From: Peribolospora baueri
Lineage: Eukaryota
Reading direction: 5' to 3'
NCBI GenBank assembly: GCA_029717555.1
Contig: JAMDHS010000003.1
Span: forward strand, 478,062-498,061
DNA length: 20,000 bases
Under the pieces are notes generated by a model, which had not been told where the DNA came from, ran no database searches, and saw nothing but the letters and a program-made list of their open reading frames with translations. The translations under genes were made by a program, and so were the position numbers. Below are positions 1,158 to 12,476 of the stretch, piece by piece. Numbering within the stretch: position 1 is the stretch's first letter; every line of letters starts with the position of its first letter.

Positions 1158-1827
1158 GTTGCAATTGCCCTGCCTGTCTGCCTTTCAGCATCAGGGGGTT
1201 GCCACCTAGCTCTGTAAACGAATCATGGGGAGAACGACGAGCACGTACATGTCTTTCCAACGTGAAAAAGCCGCTGTCCTTTCGTTGCATAGGCTGAGCA
1301 TCTGAGAAACGGGGCGCCCTCGAGTCCCGCGACGACGACGGCCGTGAGTGCCGTGCGACATTCATCCCTCCGTCATCCTTATATCCGCTTCGTACGCCTT
1401 GCTGCATTCCTTGGTTCCCGAAGCAAGACGGCGGCGTGTGAGCGACTCGTTTTCAACGTCTCGCTTGCATCCGTGTCCCGGCGAGACTGCGGCGCAGCTT
1501 CGGCCCCAGTTGCAAGGAACGGTCCGGTGGACGTCGCCGTCGCCGTCACCGTCACTGCACCGTCTCCCTCTCCGCACCCCTCACCATCTTCAGGTCAAGG
1601 ACGTGTCTAGCGCATAGATGCCGCCTGGACCCGGACGACAGTACGACTGACGAACTCCCACGATACCAACAGACAGGGAGTCGTTCGGCGCCGGACGCTG
1701 CTGGAACGAAGCGAGCGCAACGTGGGCCGGCCCAATTGACCGATCGGACAGTGTTCCCGTCATTCCCTCTCTCGCTTGGCTTGCATTCAATCCAACGACC
1801 AACGACGAACAACTTAGACAAGGCGAG

Positions 1828-4800
1828 ATGAGCAGCAACCCTCGGTCCCCAGCCTCTACTCCTACCCGCTATCCCGGAAACACTCGTCTTAAACGGCTTT
1901 CCCTCTCCACTTCGACCTCCGCATCCAACGTCTCTCCCCTCTATGACAAGGACCTTCCGGCCCTCGCGGTACAGGCGCCGGTGACGACTCTTGTGGCAGA
2001 AAACGGCGACATCGATGGGGCGCCGGAGAACGCAAACGGAAGTGTCGGTCCAGCTCACGGTCAGGGCGGTGTAGCCATCGAGCTCTCAGCCTCGATAAGC
2101 AGCGACAGCTTGCACCCAACTCGGGTGCTGGACAGTGCCACGGTCAAGGATAGGGAACGGTATTGGGCATCAACAATGTCTGGGAGGGAAAGTCCTGTAA
2201 CGAGGAAGGAGATCAGCTTTCCATACGACGGCATGCCCGATTCTGCTACGTCCAGCCCGCTTTGGACATCCGCTTTGCCTTCTGCACGAGGCGACGAACA
2301 GGGTCAGTCAGCAGGGGCGTCGATGGCGGACGGAGGACAGACCGTCAGGAGTAGGAGGTCGCTTTCCCTTCTTGGAAATGATGGCCTCAGCGGCGGCGGC
2401 AGCGGCGTCTCGGAGCGAAGCGCAGGCGAGGAAGGAGCCGGTAACGACGGGTCGTTTGCCATTTCCCGCTCTCCCCTGGCTCGGAGGGATCCCAGGAAAC
2501 GCATGTCCCTTGGATACGTGGCATCTCCCTCCTCTTCCTCCTTCAATCACTACAACCCAGACCGCTCCTCTGCGTCTCCCTCCGGCCTACCCTACTCACC
2601 TGCCGCCAACCACCACCACCCAGGTTCTCCCTTCGCCCGTCAGCAGTCTCAAACCGTTCCCCGTACGCCCACTGCGAATGGACGATCCATCTCCTACAAC
2701 TCGACAGGAGGAGCCACTTCGGCGCCAGACACGCCGTTGACGCGGTACACGACGTCCTTCGACCGCTCTGATGATGCCGGAGGCGAAGTGGATGCGCTGG
2801 CTGCCGTAAGTAGGACGCCTCCGTTGTCCTCTTCGATATCTTCTTGGGGCAGCGGGCGGTCGTTGGCCGTCTCGGCGTCCAAGGACGGCGGTGAGATGAA
2901 CGGAGACGGGGAAGGCTCGACGGCCAGGCCGTCTTCTGTTTCGACGTCCATGGACAGGCATATGGAGCTCTTGGGCTTAATGGCTGGTAAGGAGAGAAAG
3001 TGCTTGGATCTGAGAGAAGGTGAGCCCCACTTTTTTCTTTCCCGAGCTCCGTCTGACTTTTTTCAGAGGTCGTAAGGAGAAGACGGCTTGTTTTAGATAC
3101 CAATAGCTTCCTTTTCTGTTTCCTCAATATACAGAGCTGAAGAGAGAAGAAGCAGAACTGGCGGCTCTTAAGGAAGAATGGCATTCCATCGTTTCCTCCT
3201 CCCTCGCTCCTTCTGCCGGCTCCCATCCTTCTTTGAACCCCCCTGGCGACGGCGGCGCGATCGACTCGGAGAGTTCAAGGTCGACGGCGACAGGCGGCCC
3301 GATCTCATCGTCGCCTTCCGTCACGGGTAGTCGCCCCAACCCTTTCGAAGCACTGGCTTCCTTCGTGGCCACTTCCGACGGTTCAAAAGATGACTCGTCG
3401 AGTGGAAGAGGAAGCGGGGACTGGAAACAACTCCTGGCTGCGAGGCTTCCCGCTGGCGTGGGAGGCCAGGTTGGCGCCTTCTTGGAGGGACTGGCGCAGG
3501 GTGCCAGAGGCGGAGGACCATCAGAGGGGGCGAAGCCAAAGGAGAAGGGCAAAGAGAGGGAGGGGTCGGTTTCGAGCGGCGCGGGCGGGACGCTTGGTGC
3601 GATTGGAGAGGAGGACGAGGAAGGCTCACCTCGTGTGCCCAGGAAGGATATGGATCGGCCAGCGGCCGCAGGAGGGTCGAGCATCATGACAGCGTTGGCC
3701 AAAGTAGACACTTTGGTCATTGTTGCAGGCGACGATAAAACGGAAGAGAGCGGACCTCCAGTTCCTCCTGAACCCTCTCCCTCTCCGCCTCCCCCTTCCA
3801 CTCCTTACCCCACAACGAGACGCCCCAAGGCAGAAGACAAGGATCTCCTCCGCGCATTTGGCCTCAGCGACAGCCCCATTAGCTCCCCTGAGACGGTCGT
3901 TCGAGCGCTCGGCACGGAGGATGGAGAAGAGGAGGAGAAAGAGACTCTTGCCGAGCCGAAAGAAGAGACGAGTGGAGCTGGTGCCGCGGAGGCGGAAGCG
4001 GAGGAGACGAGTGGGTCGATCGCACAAGATCGTCGAGCGTCCATGATCTCGAGCACGACGGAGGGCAGCTCCAGGCCCACCTCTTTCACATCGACCGCTT
4101 CATCCACCGCCCCATCCGATTCGACCGTCCCGTCCCCTTCTACATCTCCTCAACAGCTTCAGAAACAGACGAGACAGGAAAGCCGGACCGACGCACAGGC
4201 GCCTCAGTTCGCCAAAGCGCTTGCCGCCAATGCGGGCAGGGGCAAGGAGACCACGCCGGTCAAGTCGACTGTGCCGAAACATGCCAAGCGCAGGTCGCTC
4301 TTCGACGTGTTGTCTCCGGCGCCTTTCGCGACGTCGTTCTCGTTCGGGTCAGCGGATGCTGCGTCCAACCGGGGGGTTGGACGCACGAGCGTTGACGGCG
4401 CTGGACCAGAGGCCTCGGAGAACACACCGCCGGCGAAGGTTGTGTCCTCGAACTTTGGTCTATTGTCGGAAATGCGCAAGGCAGGTGAGGACGGCTGGTC
4501 GAACTGGTCGAAGCGTCTCGCGTCGAGCGAGACGTTCAAGGCTGGGCAAAAACTCTTGAGCAAGGCGGAGCAGCGCGTCATCGAGGCCATTACTGTCGAC
4601 GTGGAGGAAACGTGGAACAGCACAGGTTCCAGCAGTAGCGCCGCTGCCAGAGCGAGGCAGCACCATCACCAGCAGCAGCAGCAGCAGCAGCATGTGTCTG
4701 GGCAATCGAAACCGAGGACGGTCGACCAGCGTAGGAGCGCGACCAGCGCCGGCGGATATCGAGAGCCGTCAAGTCCTAGTTCGCTTTCCGCTAATGTCGG

Positions 4801-5341
4801 CAGCCTCGGCGGTGCTGGCGGCCGACGGACGTCGTCCTCTTCTTCGACCGCGGGAAAGATGGAAGCCGAGGGTCCTGAGGCCGATACAAATCAACAACAG
4901 CAGCGAGGTCGATTGGCGCCTTCGTCCGCACTGGCACCGTCGTCGTCATCGCAAGCGCAACGTCGGAGTTCGTCTACCCACTCTTCTTCCGCCTCTCCCT
5001 CCTCCGCTCGTTCCCGCTCCCCCACCGAAGCCACGATGTTGGCCCCAGGAGCGCCACCCGGCTCAGCGCGCTCGACCGGAAGTGCCAAATCCCCGATGAC
5101 GGGGTGGGAATGGGACGAAAGCGACGCATGGAAGGAGGAGGAGCTAAAGCAGATTGCGACGGCTAGGAAGAAGACTGGTGGCAAGGGCTTGCGGTCAAGT
5201 TGGAGTGGCGGTAATGCTGGCGGAGGTGTGGGTACTGGAGTAGACGAGGTGAGAAAGGCGGCTGGCCCGCCTGGTGCTGTGGAGGGGAGGAGGAGGAGTA
5301 GGGCTGCGGTAGACAAAGCGCTCGGGAAGGAGTCGAGATAA
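1828..5341 (+). CDS. About 1132-aa Ser/Gly-rich low-complexity protein with a short coiled coil (DUF4048/Tda11-like); exons 1828-3019, 3135-5341
   Basis: Intron 3020-3134 (GTGAGC...TACAG, phase 1) fuses the 415-aa and 702-aa ORFs and rebuilds ELLGLMAGKERKCLDLREELKREEAELAALKEEW, which resembles the fungal 'LLTALAAQERRVLELKEEL...W' coiled-coil motif. The family label is from memory and is less certain than the gene itself. Confidence 0.75.
4670..4690 (+). repeat. (CAG)7 coding microsatellite, poly-Gln
   Basis: Seven perfect CAG units in frame (QHHHQQQQQQQH). Confidence 0.95.
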
Positions 5342-5908
5342 GATGGGGGCGGCACTCGACTTGTGTCCCCCCTAGCTATGGACTGCTTCTACGTGACCAT
5401 TCTTCTTCCTCCGCTTCAGGTCATTCTCGCTTCATATCGAGCAACTCTTTCTGCCTTCCGCATCTCACCGTGCGTCTTGCGCTGTGCGCCGCACGACCGC
5501 AGCGAGCCAGCCTTTCTCTCCTTCTTGCTGCACGCAGTGTCGTTTTTTGCTTTTGTGATTCGTTCCCATCATCATGATCAACGTGTCTCGTCTCGTATTA
5601 CTTGCGCATTTTCGCCCCCTTTGGATTCGCCGAGGGATCTCCTAGAGAGGATGAGCCGTGGGCACGTTCTAAAAAAACTATTTCTTTTGTTCGTGCTGCA
5701 TTTATTCGCTCCGAGCGAGCGAAGTCGAGTCTAGCGCGAACCCGGCGTACGTCTTCACAAAGGCACAGATCGAATCGATCCAAGAGAGAAGCAGAACATC
5801 AGGGCTGCTATCGCAGCTTTTGATTGCAGACGTGGAAAAGGAGTGGAGACTGCTGCAAGGACTCCCGACCCAGCGAGAGCCGCTCCTGGTCGCGCGATTC
5901 TCAATCGA

Positions 5909-7226
5909 TCAACGACTGACTTTAGGCAACCAACGCACGACGGCCGTGGCCTTCCCGCTGACGTAGGTGTAGACGTACCATCCGTACGAGCAAGCTTGGG
6001 ACGCTGTGAAGACGATGTGATCTGCAGGGTACGTCCGAGGAGCGTGAGAGGATCGCGTGAAAAGACGGGTCGGCGACGTTCAGCGTGATGACGTCCTGGG
6101 TCATCTCCTCGTCGTCACGCCGTCTGCCGAACCTTCCGGCTAGAATTCCAAAACCTCATCCCGTAGCTGCGTGGAGAGAGCTGGAGTCCAGCATCGTCCA
6201 AGAAGGTACTCACGACGGACCCAATCACAGGGAAGGCACTCAGGAAGACCAGGGGAACGGATCCGAACCATATGACGACAGGGAGCCAACGAGAAATAGA
6301 CTTGGCTTGACGGAACTGCTTGCCGAACTGTGCGCGGCGGCGGAGTGGGCGAGGGCATCAAGCGAGAGCGTGTGCGATGTGGGGCTCAGTGAAGCCAGAA
6401 GGAAGAATGGAGCGTAGTTGAGCTCGCGCAGAAGATACGTCGAACACTTACTCCGGCTAAAAATCCGGTTGCGACGGTATACAGAGCGAGTCCAACGAGA
6501 TAAAAAGCTGGGCACAGGTGGAGGGGAGAAGCATTGAAAGGGAGCAGATGCGACAACCGTAGAGTGGTGAGAGTTTCAGCGCTCTTTCCCGTGCAGATGA
6601 CGCGTCCAGTTCGCTTACTGGTGAACAGTCCGAGGATCGACGCCCACGCAAAGACGACGGACAAGATAGTCGAGCAAGAAGCGGCGGCGGCTCTGAAATC
6701 AGGAAAAGATAAAAAATTAGCAACGACAATAAAATGAGGCGGTTACTTAGAGTTCTAGTCAGACATGGCGACAGATCCCCTCTGTCCAAGTGGACTTGAC
6801 ACCACGTCGTCAAAGTCTGGGGGACCACAGCGGCAACAAAATTTCGACGTACATGACACCAAAGCCCTTGGCTCTTCCGCTGTTGCTGAGGCCCAGCCAG
6901 CTGTAGGCACACTTTTCATCGCCAAAAGAGATCTCATTGGCCTCTCCGCCTCTGACGCTGCCCTTCTCGATGTCATTTTCGAGGTCGGAGGCTGTATAAG
7001 CCGGGGTGCCGCCGTCGAAAGTGCGAGAGGAGGCGTAATGAGAATGCCAGTTCTCCGAGGAAACGCCGCGGGCAAGCAAGGGGTTTGGTCGGAAGGCGAC
7101 TCTGAGCGAATGCATGCTGGGCGAATTACAGCATTCGTGCTGGTTGCGGAAGCGAGTCGCTCAGTGTGCGTGGGTGTGGAGGTGGAACAGCAGGGAGGAA
7201 TGGACAATGAACGAACGAGTGCGCAT
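5909..7226 (-). CDS. Diverged Got1/Sft2-family membrane protein, paralog of the adjacent SFT2; exons 7226-7217 (tentative), 6991-6853, 6692-6619, 6507-6452, 6327-6214, 6139-6133 (tentative microexon), 6021-5909
   Basis: Spliced product ...AYSWLGLSNSGRAKGFGVI/AAAASCSTILSVVFAWASILGLFT/TFYLVGLALYTVATGFLAG/FGKQFRQAKSISRWLPVVIWFGSVPLVFLSAFPVIGSV/..DHIVFTASQACSYGWYVYTYVSGKATAVVRWLPKVSR aligns collinearly with the SFT2 at 8281-9474. Canonical donors GTACGT, GTAAGC, GTAAGT, GTGAGT. The 74-nt and 56-nt exons have the same size and phase in both genes. Confidence 0.75.
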
Positions 7227-7355
7227 CCACGATAGGGAAAACAAGAAACAAACATAAAAGTCAGACGAGTCCAAGTCCTTGTGACCTGCGCAAGGTAGAG
7301 GGAGTAGGAGAAGAGGAAGAAAGAAAGTGCGTCGAGGAGGGAAAATCTCGAACGC

Positions 7356-7389
7356 GAGGTACCGGGGGCAGGGAGGTACCGGGGGCAGG
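7356..7389. repeat. Perfect 17-bp tandem duplication GAGGTACCGGGGGCAGG x2
   Basis: Units at 7356-7372 and 7373-7389, in the intergenic region between the divergent SFT2-family genes. Confidence 0.9.
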
Positions 7390-7473
7390 GGATCTTGAAA
7401 TATACCGTCTCGAAGGCACGTAAGAAAGATAGGCACTGGGGCTGATCCTGATCCTACCTCTACTAGCCTAGAT

Positions 7474-7492
7474 TCGTCCTGACTCAGGACGA
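7474..7492. promoter_or_regulatory. 19-bp quasi-palindrome centred on TGACTCA (AP-1/Gcn4-type bZIP consensus)
   Basis: TCGTCCTGA-C-TCAGGACGA; TGACTCA at 7480-7486. A regulatory role is inferred only. Confidence 0.35.
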
Positions 7493-8280
7493 CTCAACCG
7501 CATTAGCCGAGAATCCGCGACGGCTGTTGCCTGGTCTGAACATGGTACTGTGGGGAAACAAACGGACTAAACATGTAGATGCAGTAGAAAAACCTACAAT
7601 CTCAGTTCAACTGCATATGTATAGACTCTGGTAATACGGCTGACGACGGAGGTTGAATGTGAAGGATGGTCAGTTATACGAGCTTGCCCGCAAGAGACGT
7701 CAACCGGTGAGACTTGGTAACCGTCCAATAACATCAACATGGGAACGGCGTGGCAAGGAAAACCACTCAAGCTGGCATAAAGCCCCAAGAATGCCGTCAG
7801 CCATAGAATCGACATGTGATCATCCTAACCAGACTCTGCTCTTTTGCCACGCCGTTTGTTGCCCATGACGACGGCGAGAGAAGGGCGAGCTGAACCTGTG
7901 AGACCCTGAAGTTAGAGGTTGAAAATCAGTACTTGGGGAGTCTACACCAGTGTGTGCTCCTTGTCACTCGCGGGGGAGAGAAAGAGGTGGTGTTGACCGA
8001 AAGACTTGCCGAGGTCAAAGGAGGCCATTCATTGTCGTTCCCCAACGCGGCCCTCGAGAAGCATCGCGACACCGCCCCGGAGCACTGCGGCAAGATCCGT
8101 CACCCATCCAGCAACAGTCAGTCGCCAGGCGTTGTGTCAGAAACGACAACAACCGAGCCTCCTTCATCAGCACGACAGGTCACTCGCCTAGTGTTCACGC
8201 AGAGTAATCGCTTCTTGGAGAGGCTATTGGCTAATTGAGACAGGAACGGGAAAAAGGGCGGAAACAGGACAGCCAGTAAG

Positions 8281-9474
8281 ATGTCGGGACGATGGTGAGT
8301 GAACTTTCGAGTTGCATGTGCATATCATCGTTGCGGTCACCAAAGAGGATTGCATACCATTTGAAGGGCATGGGATATGCCATATGACGCTCATCGCACT
8401 TTGTCCTCGCCTTGATACAGGCTTAACATCGACACGAATGCGATCAAGAACGTCAACTCGGAGCTGACCGAGGACAGCTCCCAGTTTGATTTCTTGCAGC
8501 TTAGTCGACAGCAGCGCCTGATAGGATTTGCTGGCTGGTAAGCCGACGGATTGGATGGTAGACTGAATTGGCAGCAATGTGATGGCTGCCAGTCGAAAAA
8601 TGACGTATACGTGCCGTTCTTCCCTTTCTTTGCTCCTACTCTGCGCTTTTCTTTACGTTCTTTTCAACTGGACAGCTTCATCGGCGGCTTCGTCATCTCC
8701 CTTCTTGGATCGATTCTTCTCTTTACGGGTAACCTCGCTCTTTTCGCAGGTGAGCTCTGAGGATTCTGGACTACTCCGGACGGGGACTCGATTGTGACCG
8801 AGTCGTGATGAGCGCACATGCTTACTAGCAACTCTAACGGTTTGGTATAGTGCTTTACTCGGTCGGCGTTGTCGTCTCGCTCGTTGGAACGGGCTTCCTC
8901 CTCGGCGTGAGTTGAACTCTACGTGTTACCTGTTATCACACGTCCGTTTGTGCTTGTGGACGTATGTATGCGTGCATGGTAGTCAAGCTGAACGTTTCTC
9001 TATTTTGCCATCGCGTCTTGGCCTACCTTTCCTCCCCGTCGCCAGTTCGTCCGCCAATTCAAGCAGATGTTCAACCCAGTCCGACTAGTGGCGACGTGCA
9101 TCTTCCTAGCCGCGATGGTGATGGTCTTCGTGAGCGCATTTGCGCTCCGCATCGACGTGAGTGCTCCGTGTCAAACAAGCGACACCTTTGCCGGCCATGT
9201 CCAGCGGAAACGTTGCGACGCACGGCCTTGATTGCCTGACGTGCCTTGTTCCTCCTTCACCAGGCCCTGGCCATCGTCTTCTGCATTATCGAGTACCTTG
9301 CCTTCCTCTGGTATTGCCTTTCATATATCCCTTACGCAAGGTGAGTGTCCGTCCAAACTTTTCTTCCGCCAAGAGTGTCTCTCGCTGTCTGTCTCACCGA
9401 GGCCTTCGCCCTGTCCTTCGGACTGATCGATCAACAGGGCGGCAGCCAAAAAGTTGTTTGGCAACCTCTTCTGA
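8281..9474 (+). CDS. SFT2: Got1/Sft2-like vesicle transport protein, 161 aa; exons 8281-8294, 8421-8537, 8676-8749, 8851-8906, 9046-9156, 9264-9340, 9438-9474
   Basis: Six canonical GT-AG introns give MSGRWLNIDTNAIK...LQLSRQQRLIGFAGCFIGGFVISLLGSILLFTGNLALFAVLYSVGVVVSLVGTGFLLGFVRQFKQMFNPVRLVATCIFLAAMVMVFVSAFALRIDALAIVFCIIEYLAFLWYCLSYIPYARAAAKKLFGNLF*, with family hallmarks 'QRL.GF', 'Q.K.MF...RL' and 'WY.LSYIPY'. Confidence 0.93.
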
Positions 9475-10020: not shown

Positions 10021-11849
10021 TCATTCCTCGACGCCCTCGGCTCTCCGCTCCTTCTCCCTCCGAATCGCCAGCCACTTCTCCCTCTCCTCCTTCTCCTTCT
10101 CCAAATCCGGATCAGTAAAGACGGCAAACCGGCTTCTGAACCGGTCATCCCATTGGACCGGTTTAGACGGTTTGACAATGTCAAAACCTTCCTTTTCGCC
10201 GCGCCAGCTAAGCTCCTTTTTGATACGCTGGGCTCGGAGCTCGGATTCAGTAGGCGGGGGATAATTCTTCTCTTCCTTTGTAGGTTCCCTTTCTCCCCTC
10301 GCCAAGGCGCGCGCAGTGGCCAGCTTCTCGGGCAGCTCAGCATAGAACCTAGCCTTGGCGTCGTCGAGGTACTTGGGCAGCTTAAAGAAGGAGGGCTTGT
10401 AGAAGCGCTCGCTGTCGAGACCCCAGTCGAGGTCGCTGTGCGTCGGCGCGCCCGTCGTCCTGTCCTCCGCTTCTCGTCCTCCCTCGCGCTCTCCTTGCTC
10501 CTCCGTCTCGGGCACCCAAGGACCTTCATCCCGTTGATCTGGAGGAAACTCAAAATCTCGCCGGCCACCGAGGACGAGACGGATGGCGGTCTCACCGCCC
10601 TCGCGCACCTTGTCGCGCTGTCGGAAAAAGCCCACGATCCTCCTCGGCCAGGTGCGGAAGCCGATCTGGGTGGCATAAGGGACGTAGAGAAGGGGTGGTT
10701 GAGCGGGGAGGACGTCGGGTGGGGGGATAAGAGTCGGTTCTGTGGTCGATCGAGACGAGGCGGCGGGGGAAGGAGGCGCGGGGGCGGGCGCACGACGGAG
10801 AGCGGAGAAAGGTGCAAAGAGGCTGGATCGTTGCGACGACGAAGAGGAAAGCCGGGAGGGCGGAGCGGCGTCGTCACCGTCCGCCTCTGCCGCCAGCATC
10901 CTGATCCGTCGCTCCACCTCATCCTCTTCACCAAGGTCTTCATCCGCCCTCAAGTTGTCCGCGTCAGGCGAAGAAACAACGCCTTCCGATGCCATCTCTT
11001 GCCGCTTTGGCGGCTCATCAAATGCCCGGTCTTCCTCTTGCTCGAGTATCTTCACCAGCCTCTCCTCCTCCTCTCCTTCCCGCGGCGGCTGAGCGGGGAT
11101 ATGCCCGCTCCAGCCGCGCTTCAATCCAGCCATATACTCCTTGAATGCGGGTCTACCAACGACAAGGACGCCTCCCTCGAGCTCGCGCTGAAGTTTTTGT
11201 TCGGGTGTGAGGATGGTGGGAGGAAGATCCGGCTCGGGCGGTTGGGGCCCTCTGGCTTCTAATCGGCGTCGGTCGTGCACGCGCGCTTCGATGGCGCGGG
11301 CAAGCGCTCCGTGCTGCTTTCCTGCGACGGTCTCCCAGTCTACCGCTGCCGCCACGAGGATGGGCTGAAAAGAGGAGGGAGAGGGAGAGGTAAATCGTAT
11401 GAGGGCGGAGCGAGACCTGTGAAGCGACAGGGCCAACTCACCTTGACATACTTGCGAAAGTAGCGCAAACCGCGATCCCAGTCATCGTCCTCGGGTCCCT
11501 TAGCACCGAGAACGAGCACCTTCCTTCCGTAGTCGAGGCTGTTATCCAAAGTCTGTTCGCCGAGGTACTTCACGCGGTCCTCGTACTCCTTGCGGATGCG
11601 CTTGCACTGTCTCCGGTCGTCCCAGTAGAGGTAGGAGAGTGTGCCGGTGAGAGTCCAAAATATGAGCCAGTTGCGGCCCGGTAGGCGCGGTCGCCAGGTG
11701 AGCACGGAGCGGGGTATGCCCATGTACTGGAGCGGGGCGAGGGCGCGAGGGACGGGTCGGGGGGGCGGCTTGGCAGGGAGGGTGGACTTGGAGGAGGAGG
11801 AGGAGGCGGCGCCGTCGGAGGGCGGGGGTGGCGGAGGAGGTTGGGCCAT
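10021..11849 (-). CDS. TIM54: Mitochondrial inner-membrane translocase subunit Tim54, about 583 aa; exons 11849-11442, 11364-10021
   Basis: Motifs 'YMGIP...RLPGRNWLIFW...YWDDRRQCKRI', 'YFRKYVK/PILVAAAVDW' and 'VVGRPAFKEYMAGLKRGW'. One phase-0 intron, 11441-11365 (GTGAGT...TTTCAG). Confidence 0.93.
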
Positions 11850-11963
11850 CTTGGAAGGGCCTGGCCTGATGTGACTGACTCCTCGGCGAGATGGCGGTGA
11901 CGACTTTGGGCAAGCATTTACAACGACGACGAGGAGGATGAAGAAGAATGCGAATAATCGCCT

Positions 11964-11975
11964 CATCACGTGATG
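11964..11975. promoter_or_regulatory. Palindromic E-box CATCACGTGATG (Cbf1-type RTCACGTG) upstream of TIM54
   Basis: Perfect 12-bp palindrome about 115 bp upstream of the TIM54 ATG; function inferred. Confidence 0.35.
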
Positions 11976-12476
11976 CGAGAAGCCGGGCGAGGACCCATTC
12001 TCATAACCCTAAAGTACGGTCCGGAGACATTTCTCGGCCTCCGCCGTAAAAGCCCATGGATGACCCGGGCGCGAGTTTGTATGCCCGCACAGTTCCATCG
12101 GCCTCCACGAGGAACGAGACCGGGTGGACTGGCCCGGCCCAGCCTTTTGGACATCGACTCCACGAGTAACCTCCATTTCTTCTCCGTCACCGAGTGGCAG
12201 CGTCGTGATGAGAAGAAGCTGGCCTTCGTCGATGGGGAAAAGTGTGTGTGAAGAGTGCAGGGGCTTGAGCGTGTTGGCAACGCCGAACGAGTGCGACATC
12301 TCGATTAGCGACCGGTGCAAAGCTTCCGTCTCGTGGTAGACGTGGTGTGTCTCCGCAACGTTGGGAATCCCGTTGAACCTTTTGACAGAAAGGAGGAGCG
12401 ATGTCTGTTCCGGCAGGACAGGGACTGGTTTCGAGATCTTAATGAGCCTTCGAGCATATGGGAACGTATAAGATTG

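Follow-up and report, generated by a model that had tools for sequence, protein, structure and literature searches.

A diverged, inverted duplicate of an SFT2-type gene in Peribolospora baueri, possibly disabled recently

The 20,000-nucleotide stretch of Peribolospora baueri DNA analyzed here (the window) contains an SFT2-type gene on the plus strand and, head to head with it, a series of minus-strand exons that resemble it. On balance, we favor the interpretation that the minus-strand locus (7115-5909) arose from the SFT2-type gene by a genuine, ancient tandem duplication in inverted orientation, and that selection would have kept it through most of its history as a spliced coding gene for an N-terminally extended Sft2-like membrane protein. 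The copy adds a diverged new member to a known family and may have been disabled recently. Positions in the following list and throughout the text are those of the window.

8281..9474, plus strand: SFT2-type gene, 7 exons, 161 aa, defined by splice signals, translation, and Pfam PF04178; exons at 8281-8294, 8421-8537, 8676-8749, 8851-8906, 9046-9156, 9264-9340, and 9438-9474 (stop included)
7116..8280, no strand: divergent intergenic region of 1165 nt between both start codons
6853..7115, minus strand: exon 1 of the minus copy, with ATG at 7115, a ~65-residue N-terminal extension followed by the SWLGLSNSGRAKGFGV block, and donor GTACGT at 6852
6619..6692, minus strand: exon 2 of 74 nt, encoding hydrophobic segment 1 and followed by donor GTAAGC (6618); same length and phases as plus exon 3
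6452..6507, minus strand: exon 3 of 56 nt, encoding hydrophobic segment 2 with TGFLAG and followed by donor GTAAGT (6451); same length and phases as plus exon 4
6214..6327, minus strand: exon 4 of 114 nt, encoding the FGKQFRQ loop as well as hydrophobic segment 3 and followed by the consensus donor GTGAGT (6213)
5909..6021, minus strand: last exon, beginning at 6021 behind a CAG acceptor; homologous frame IVF...GWYVYTYV with its stop at 5909-5911

Judged from its sequence, the plus-strand gene is an ordinary fungal-type SFT2 membrane-trafficking gene. Every donor reads GTRAGY and every acceptor YAG. We found that its exon 5 matches positions 51-85 of the Got1/Sft2 profile PF04178 with 30.9 bits, against a cut-off of 24.6, and that exon 6 matches positions 89-110 with 23.4 bits. 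All four hydrophobic segments of the encoded protein are strong, with best 19-residue Kyte-Doolittle means of 2.23, 2.23, 2.59, and 2.21, and the protein carries the C-terminal SYIPY-type motif.

For the minus copy, the junctions given in a preliminary description of the locus (6852/6693, 6618/6508, and 6451/6328) proved exact, as they combine consensus donors with acceptors that lead into exon starts 6692, 6507, and 6327. The peptide motifs that it quoted were likewise all found in the translations. All four introns of the copy have GTRNGY donors and CAG acceptors. The distance between the two starts, previously put at about 1.05 kb, has to be corrected to 1165 nt, with the in-frame ATG of the minus copy at 7115. 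Further upstream, the minus strand of the spacer carries ATGs at 7255, 7226, and 7134, none of them more than 140 nt away from the proposed start; the one at 7226 opens an ORF of only 21 codons, with a stop at 7161-7163. Codon usage across exon 1 favors the proposed frame (log-likelihood ratio 11.4 vs 2.9 and -39.5; GC3 0.68), and the antisense frames across the same exon reach at most 4.3. Over exons 1 to 4, GC3 amounts to 110/169, as compared to an intron GC of 0.554 (P 0.006). Segments 1 to 3 of the product have hydropathies of 2.05, 1.60, and 1.89 by the measure used for the plus protein.

The two genes share much of their structure. The internal exons measure 74, 56, and 114 nt in the minus copy and 74, 56, and 111 nt in the plus gene, exactly as had been described. 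Three introns occupy matching positions, with a constant residue offset between the proteins (44/44/44) and phases 2/1/0 in both, while a fourth is equivalent at an offset of 45 and phase 0 in both genes. Thus, intron positions and phases are shared with a Got1/Sft2 member. The view that the exon architecture is the same holds in part: the plus gene has seven exons and the minus copy five, and the first and last introns of the plus gene are without counterpart in the copy.

At the protein level, BLASTP of the spliced minus peptide against the plus protein yielded an ungapped match of 53.5 bits with 30/98 residues identical (31%), and with composition correction and a search space of 1e8 residues the same pair scored 43.5 bits (E 7.8e-5). 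The minus peptide is significantly similar to an established Got1/Sft2 member, namely the PF04178-matching plus protein. The likeness is collinear and covers the LS...R..GF block, hydrophobic segments 1 to 3, and the TGFL.G/F..QF.Q loop. The local alignment score was 127, whereas block shuffles preserving the hydropathy profile scored 36-40 ± 6.5-8.2 (z 10.7-14.0); in four runs of 1000 shuffles each, not one attained the observed value. When the plus protein was searched against the 20-kb window by tblastn, its best two matches other than itself were minus exons 4 and 3, the better with an E of 0.058; in a direct BLASTP comparison, minus exon 4 and plus exon 5 shared 11 of 34 residues (24.3 bits, pair E 2e-6). 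Exon-by-exon Pfam searches returned no family at E<=10 for minus exons 1, 4, and last (homologous frame), a result that includes the exons homologous to the PF04178-matching plus exons 5 and 6 (30.9 and 23.4 bits). Minus exon 2 as a single query gave no family at E<=0.01, and the open frame across minus exons 2 and 3 gave none at E<=1. Plus exons 2 and 3, searched in the same way, were likewise without a PF04178 match.

We next consider the age of the duplication. Identity between the two genes at codon positions 1, 2, and 3 is 0.48, 0.49, and 0.26; the third position is at the random level and hence saturated, while the first two are not. Because of this saturation of dS, dN/dS between the paralogs is unusable, but pN (0.51) is lower than pS (0.83). 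In a simulation of neutral decay to 31% identity, scored for an open frame together with preservation of the 12 splice dinucleotide bases, 158 of 2000 replicates stayed free of stops, one kept the splice dinucleotides, and none kept both. The minus copy did not merely decay since the duplication, as the codon positions, the excess of pS over pN, and the simulation demonstrate. The saturated third positions, the unsaturated first and second positions, and the outcome of the simulation together argue for an old duplicate that was retained by selection as coding sequence for most of its history. The two genes are no longer linked by any inverted repeat at the DNA level. The previously suggested old inverted duplication, far diverged from the family consensus, is thus borne out by the pairwise statistics, the intron positions and phases, the lack of a residual inverted repeat, and the third-position identity of 0.26.

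The C-terminal exon is the part of the copy that fits least well. Enumeration of donors and acceptors identified 6021 as the sole acceptor for the last exon, and joining it to donor 6213 (phase 0) leads into a frame without homology that ends at a stop at 5755-5757. The homologous frame, which terminates at 5909, requires one additional base from the upstream exon and is therefore off by 1 nt with the consensus sites. Only three GT donors restore it, with exon ends at 6291, 6240, and 6210, and all of them lack a G at +5. The last of these, the weak donor GTACCT at 6209, overlaps the consensus donor of exon 4, and its use would extend that exon to 118 nt. GTACCT is the sole frame-restoring GT donor nearby; it lacks the G at +5 that is found in 10/10 other donors of both genes. 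Still, the homologous frame is open over 56 codons and stands out from shuffles with a z of 3.9 (its score was reached by 8/2000), as opposed to a z of 1.2 (285/2000) for the in-phase frame, and its GC3 is coding-like, at 27/37 (P 0.02) vs 17/36. The fourth hydrophobic segment that the preliminary description had seen in the copy is weak, at 0.68 vs 2.21 in the plus protein, and it is devoid of the C-terminal SYIPY-type motif of the family. By this measure, the copy falls short of the four transmembrane segments of Got1/Sft2 proteins; its segment 4 is also out of frame with the consensus donor. The statement that frames and splice signals were kept remains valid for exons 1 to 4 and for the splice signals, and fails for the last exon, which is out of frame with consensus sites.

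These features bear on a serious, if less probable, alternative, according to which the copy is a recently disabled duplicate that was functional for a long time. A real shift of the frame by 1 nt, where the last exon begins, would then have made it a young pseudogene, or it would now yield a functionless, truncated three-segment product, with the weak segment 4 and the lost motif reflecting relaxed constraint. The frame break in the presence of consensus splice signals, the hydropathy of 0.68, and the lack of a Pfam match in exons whose plus-strand homologs do match are all consistent with such a disabling, and a sequencing indel is made less likely by the position of the break, which lies outside any homopolymer on the exon side. 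However, a 1-nt error in the assembly could produce the same break, exons 1 to 4 and all splice signals are intact, and in the last exon the homologous frame has stayed open and retains a coding-like GC3. The open frame, its GC3, and the residual similarity imply that any disabling was recent. In contrast, we strongly disfavor, as highly improbable, the explanation that there is no gene at all and that the collinear likeness arose by chance from hydrophobic composition in a GC-rich genome, or marks a long-dead relic. The single-exon matches are indeed weak (best tblastn E 0.058), the locus is without Pfam or database support, and GC-rich DNA yields long spurious ORFs, as exemplified by those of 232 and 152 aa in other frames of the same strand. 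Chance composition, however, does not account for a score that the hydropathy-keeping shuffles never attained, for three exact matches of intron position and phase with 74- and 56-nt exons of identical length, or for the advantage of the proposed exon 1 frame over the antisense frames (11.4 vs 4.3), and none of the competing ORFs on either strand matches Pfam. A long-dead relic would hardly be expected given that 0/2000 neutral-decay replicates resembled the copy.

Under the favored reading of an old duplicate kept as a coding gene, the product would be an Sft2-like membrane protein with an extended N terminus, in which three solid transmembrane segments are collinear with those of Sft2 and the cytosolic loop (TGFL.G / F..QF.Q) is conserved. 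If expressed, it would be predicted to reside in Golgi/endosome membranes and to act at the same vesicle-docking/fusion step as Sft2, possibly as a specialised or partner subunit that is divergently transcribed from the 1.17-kb spacer common with SFT2. The C-terminal exon is the weak point: segment 4 has lost its hydrophobicity and the family motif and, in the assembly, is 1 nt out of frame with the consensus splice sites. Depending on the state of this exon, the present product may be a four-segment protein (in the case of a 1-nt assembly error or use of donor 6209), a protein of three segments that ends in an unrelated tail, or there may be no product. A more far-reaching proposal, which we regard as unlikely, is that the copy is expressed as a lineage-specific derivative of Sft2 that gained a long N-terminal cytosolic domain and whose fourth helix was remodelled or lost. 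It would share a bidirectional promoter with canonical SFT2 and take part in endosome-to-Golgi vesicle fusion as a heteromeric partner of Sft2 or as its regulator. If true, a tetraspan trafficking factor would have been converted, in a fungus, into an adaptor with three spans.

Got1 proteins, which belong to the same Pfam family as Sft2, are not known to carry its N-terminal cytosolic region. Got1p and GOLT1A-GOLT1B are described as early secretory pathway proteins that span the membrane four times, and a paralog pair among them is reported to have opposing effects in one assay (bioRxiv 10.1101/2023.12.12.569033). Sft2p of the yeast Saccharomyces cerevisiae is described in PMC4542293, with reference to Conchon et al. 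1999, as interacting genetically with the syntaxin Sed5p and influencing post-Golgi traffic. As compared to Sft2p and the plus-strand neighbor, the minus copy is similar in the N-terminal block, segments 1 to 3, and the TGFL.G/F..QF.Q loop, and it shares intron positions with the neighbor. It differs from them in the ~65 extra N-terminal residues, in its 31% identity to the neighbor, in exons that have no Pfam score, and in a segment 4 that is weak, out of frame, and without the SYIPY-type motif. Animal SFT2D1, SFT2D2, and SFT2D3, likened to the copy here by description, set a precedent for expansion of the Sft2 family by duplication into diverged paralogs; in contrast to the copy, they are annotated family members. 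SFT2D2 is reported on TGN/endosome structures and as required for endosome-to-Golgi retrieval (PMC4542293).

If functional, the minus copy would be a gene that escapes both ORF- and HMM-based annotation, having five short exons none of which has a Pfam match. It would indicate that fast-evolving paralogs can arise in fungi from the Sft2 family, which is poorly understood, and would offer a natural variant for dissecting the importance of the individual parts of Sft2. As a young pseudogene, it would represent an ordinary outcome of gene duplication. In both cases, the bearing is on annotation quality more than on any standing biological question.

Searches for relatives beyond the window gave little. 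With minus exon 1, phmmer against 1.84 billion representatives found only two weak matches, with E values of 2.4e-4 and 5.3e-4, in proteins of 301 and 1356 aa. A word-index protein search with the same exon among longer proteins produced 95 word-sharing candidates, none of which scored, and the 41-aa frame of plus exon 2 produced one candidate, which did not score either. A protein search with a two-row alignment of plus exon 5 and minus exon 4 listed 37 candidates, with none at E<=10. Since the canonical plus gene also found no relatives in this manner, blank results from such short queries carry little information. In the ESM Atlas, minus exon 4 had no usable match, and the control, plus exon 5, retrieved only unrelated clusters of small membrane proteins (scores <=0.80), which makes this comparison uninformative. 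The literature searched, which was of limited coverage, contained no paper on fungal SFT2 duplication. A metagenome scan with minus exon 1 gave 325 pattern matches and no confirmed one, and the same kind of scan with the neighboring Tim54 exon detected six fungal-like loci with 32-55% identity. Neither spliced peptide found a credible SFT2 at these six loci by tblastn (best 29.3 bits, with in-frame stops), which indicates that synteny is not conserved at that distance.

Within the window, seven other ORFs on both strands had no Pfam match. The ORFs of the divergent spacer were likewise without a match in Pfam, and the spacer contained no Rfam family and no tRNA. It does carry, at 7356-7389, a 17-nt sequence that is perfectly duplicated in tandem.

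Judged from its sequence, the inverted copy of the SFT2 gene (− strand, 7115–5909, modeled here with five exons) represents a new and strongly diverged member of a known family, possibly one that has been newly disabled. It lies head to head with a canonical SFT2-type gene on the + strand, and the two start codons are separated by 1165 nt. Both genes and their neighbors are listed below.

8281–8294, 8421–8537, 8676–8749, 8851–8906, 9046–9156, 9264–9340, and 9438–9474, + strand: the seven exons of the canonical SFT2-type gene, 161-aa product
7115 (ATG) to 6853, − strand: exon 1 of the diverged copy, with an in-frame start
1651–5341, + strand: two open frames of 474 and 744 codons, very long and rich in Ser, Pro, and Gly; no Pfam match
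10021–12008, − strand: Tim54 gene (PF11711), next to SFT2 on its downstream side, in two long open frames scoring 81.7 and 61.5 bits
18757–19689, − strand: weak match to NADH:flavin oxidoreductase (PF00724), partial in that it is limited to the C-terminal portion of the profile, and sub-threshold at 20.4 bits (cut-off 27)

The Ser/Pro/Gly-rich frames are probably one low-complexity protein gene that converges on the diverged copy from its downstream side. The window is GC-rich (0.46–0.66 per 500 nt), and short introns of 97–192 nt, bounded by GTRNGY donors and YAG acceptors, interrupt its genes. This organization resembles that of a fungal genome.

The identity of the + strand gene was established by searching single exons against Pfam. 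Exon 5 matched PF04178 (Got1/Sft2) with 30.9 bits (cut-off 24.6; profile positions 51–85), and exon 6 matched the same family with 23.4 bits (positions 89–110). The protein has four strongly hydrophobic segments with mean hydropathies of 2.21–2.59, and its N-terminal region suggests that it is an Sft2-type and not a Got1-type protein.

For the − strand gene, consensus donors are found at 6852, 6618, 6451, and 6213, and CAG acceptors set the exon starts at 6692, 6507, 6327, and 6021. These sites match exactly the three junctions proposed in the preliminary description and add a fourth. The start implied there, ATG 7226, opens an ORF of only 21 codons with a stop at 7161–7163; exon 1 begins at 7115. 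Exons 1–4 comprise 169 codons in a single frame, with a GC3 of 110/169 as compared to an intron GC of 0.554 (P 0.006). A codon model built from the window's long exons gave exon 1 its best score in the proposed frame. The 140 nt preceding the proposed start contain three further ATGs (7134, 7226, and 7255). One of them opens an ORF of 2 codons, another an ORF of 21 codons, and another an ORF of 166 codons that is in a different frame and overlaps exon 1. Depending on where transcription starts, they could serve as upstream ORFs.

The resemblance between the two genes exceeds chance. BLASTP of the spliced peptides gave an ungapped alignment of 53.5 bits with 30/98 identical residues, and 43.5 bits (E 7.8e-5) with composition-based statistics and a search space of 1e8 residues. 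The local score of 127 was reached by 0/1000 shuffles in each of four runs (shuffled scores 36–40 ± 6.5–8.2), in which residues were shuffled within blocks of 5, 8, 12, or 20 so that the hydropathy profile was preserved. BLASTP of exon pairs aligned exon 4 of the diverged copy with + strand exon 5 (24.3 bits, 11/34 identical) and the last exons of both genes with each other (16.5 bits, 6/19). When the + strand protein was compared with all 20 kb by tblastn, the top non-self matches were exons 4 and 3 of the diverged copy, followed at lower rank by its last exon and exon 1; all four lie collinearly on the − strand. The introns also correspond: three are offset by 44, 44, and 44 residues between the proteins, which share phases 2, 1, and 0 there, and the fourth by 45 residues, at phase 0 in each. 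Exons between the common introns measure 74/56/114 nt in the diverged copy and 74/56/111 nt in SFT2. The paralogy noticed in the preliminary description is secure. The common exon architecture extends to the core introns but not to the first and last introns of the + strand gene, which have no counterpart.

The duplication is old. No DNA-level inverted repeat links the two genes, and identity across the 98 aligned codons is 0.48, 0.49, and 0.26 by codon position, placing third positions at the random level. Synonymous differences are saturated (pS 0.833), with a pN of 0.511. In a neutral simulation with substitutions only, stopped once protein identity had fallen to 31% (on average 0.62 changes per site), the 98 codons stayed free of stops in 158/2000 runs, all 12 splice dinucleotide bases stayed intact in 1/2000, and both held in 0/2000. 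Indels, which lay outside the simulation, would also have altered the 74- and 56-nt exon lengths. The copy was therefore a selected coding gene during most of the period since the duplication.

The profile comparison suggested in the preliminary description, run exon by exon, assigned no translation of the diverged copy to a Pfam family. At E ≤ 10 there was no match for exons 1 and 4 or for the last exon, at E ≤ 0.01 none for exon 2 in the correct frame, and at E ≤ 1 none for the open frame over exons 2 and 3. As a control, the + strand gene is half informative, since the same procedure recovers PF04178 from its exons 5 and 6 but not from its exons 2 and 3. Thus, the copy has left the family consensus where the test has power. 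A word-index search of protein databases scored no relatives of exon 1, and two further searches seeded with exons of the canonical gene likewise scored none; phmmer with exon 1 against 1.84 billion representatives returned two weak matches. No match to exon 1 came out of a metagenome scan. Scanning with the neighboring Tim54 exon located six fungal-like contigs (32–55% identity), none of which had an SFT2 close by. These collections evidently contain little of this lineage, and the empty searches are therefore no evidence against conservation. A fungal SFT2 duplicate was unreported in the literature searched.

The preliminary description had the reading frames preserved, which holds for exons 1–4 but fails at the last exon. 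Splicing from the consensus donor GTGAGT (6213, phase 0) to acceptor 6021, the only one ahead of the homologous block, shifts the last exon by 1 nt relative to the frame that encodes IVF...GWYVYTYV and resembles SFT2. When all GT and GC donors and all AG acceptors were enumerated, this homologous frame could be entered solely from the exon ends 6291, 6240, and 6210 and from GC donors. It appears to be the true frame, or to have been so until recently: against the SFT2 C terminus it gave a z of 3.9 (reached by 8/2000 shuffles) as compared to 1.2 (285/2000) for the in-phase frame, its GC3 is 27/37 (P 0.02) versus 17/36, and it ends near the end of the + strand protein. The in-phase frame continues to 5755, with a GC3 of 0.43 across the whole tail.

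A 1-nt assembly error or the use of a weak donor may account for this offset, yielding a protein of 207 aa. The exon side of the break is not a homopolymer, and the frame-restoring donors, the closest being GTACCT at 6209, which overlaps the consensus site, all lack the G at +5 present in the other ten donors of the two genes. Alternatively, the frameshift may be real, leaving a three-segment protein of 257 aa with an unrelated tail, or the gene may be a young pseudogene. The fourth of the hydrophobic segments described previously is only weakly hydrophobic (0.68 versus 2.21 in SFT2), and the C-terminal motif seen in the + strand protein is missing from it.

The function of the diverged copy is putative and unproven. 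According to PMC4542293, yeast Sft2p interacts genetically with the syntaxin Sed5p and affects post-Golgi traffic, and human SFT2D2 localizes to TGN/endosome membranes and is required for endosome-to-Golgi retrieval. If expressed, the copy would be expected on the same membranes as Sft2 proteins and might act at the same trafficking step, as a specialized or partner subunit. Both genes are possibly co-regulated from the common spacer (7116–8280).

The ORFs of this spacer had no Pfam match, and it contained no Rfam family or tRNA. It carries a perfect 17-nt tandem duplication (7356–7389; two copies, spacing 17). Intron 2 of the diverged copy (6508–6618) spans 111 nt, a length divisible by three, and contains no stop in frame, so that exons 2 and 3 lie in one open frame (ORF 6386–6742); its retention would insert 37 residues without truncating the predicted protein.
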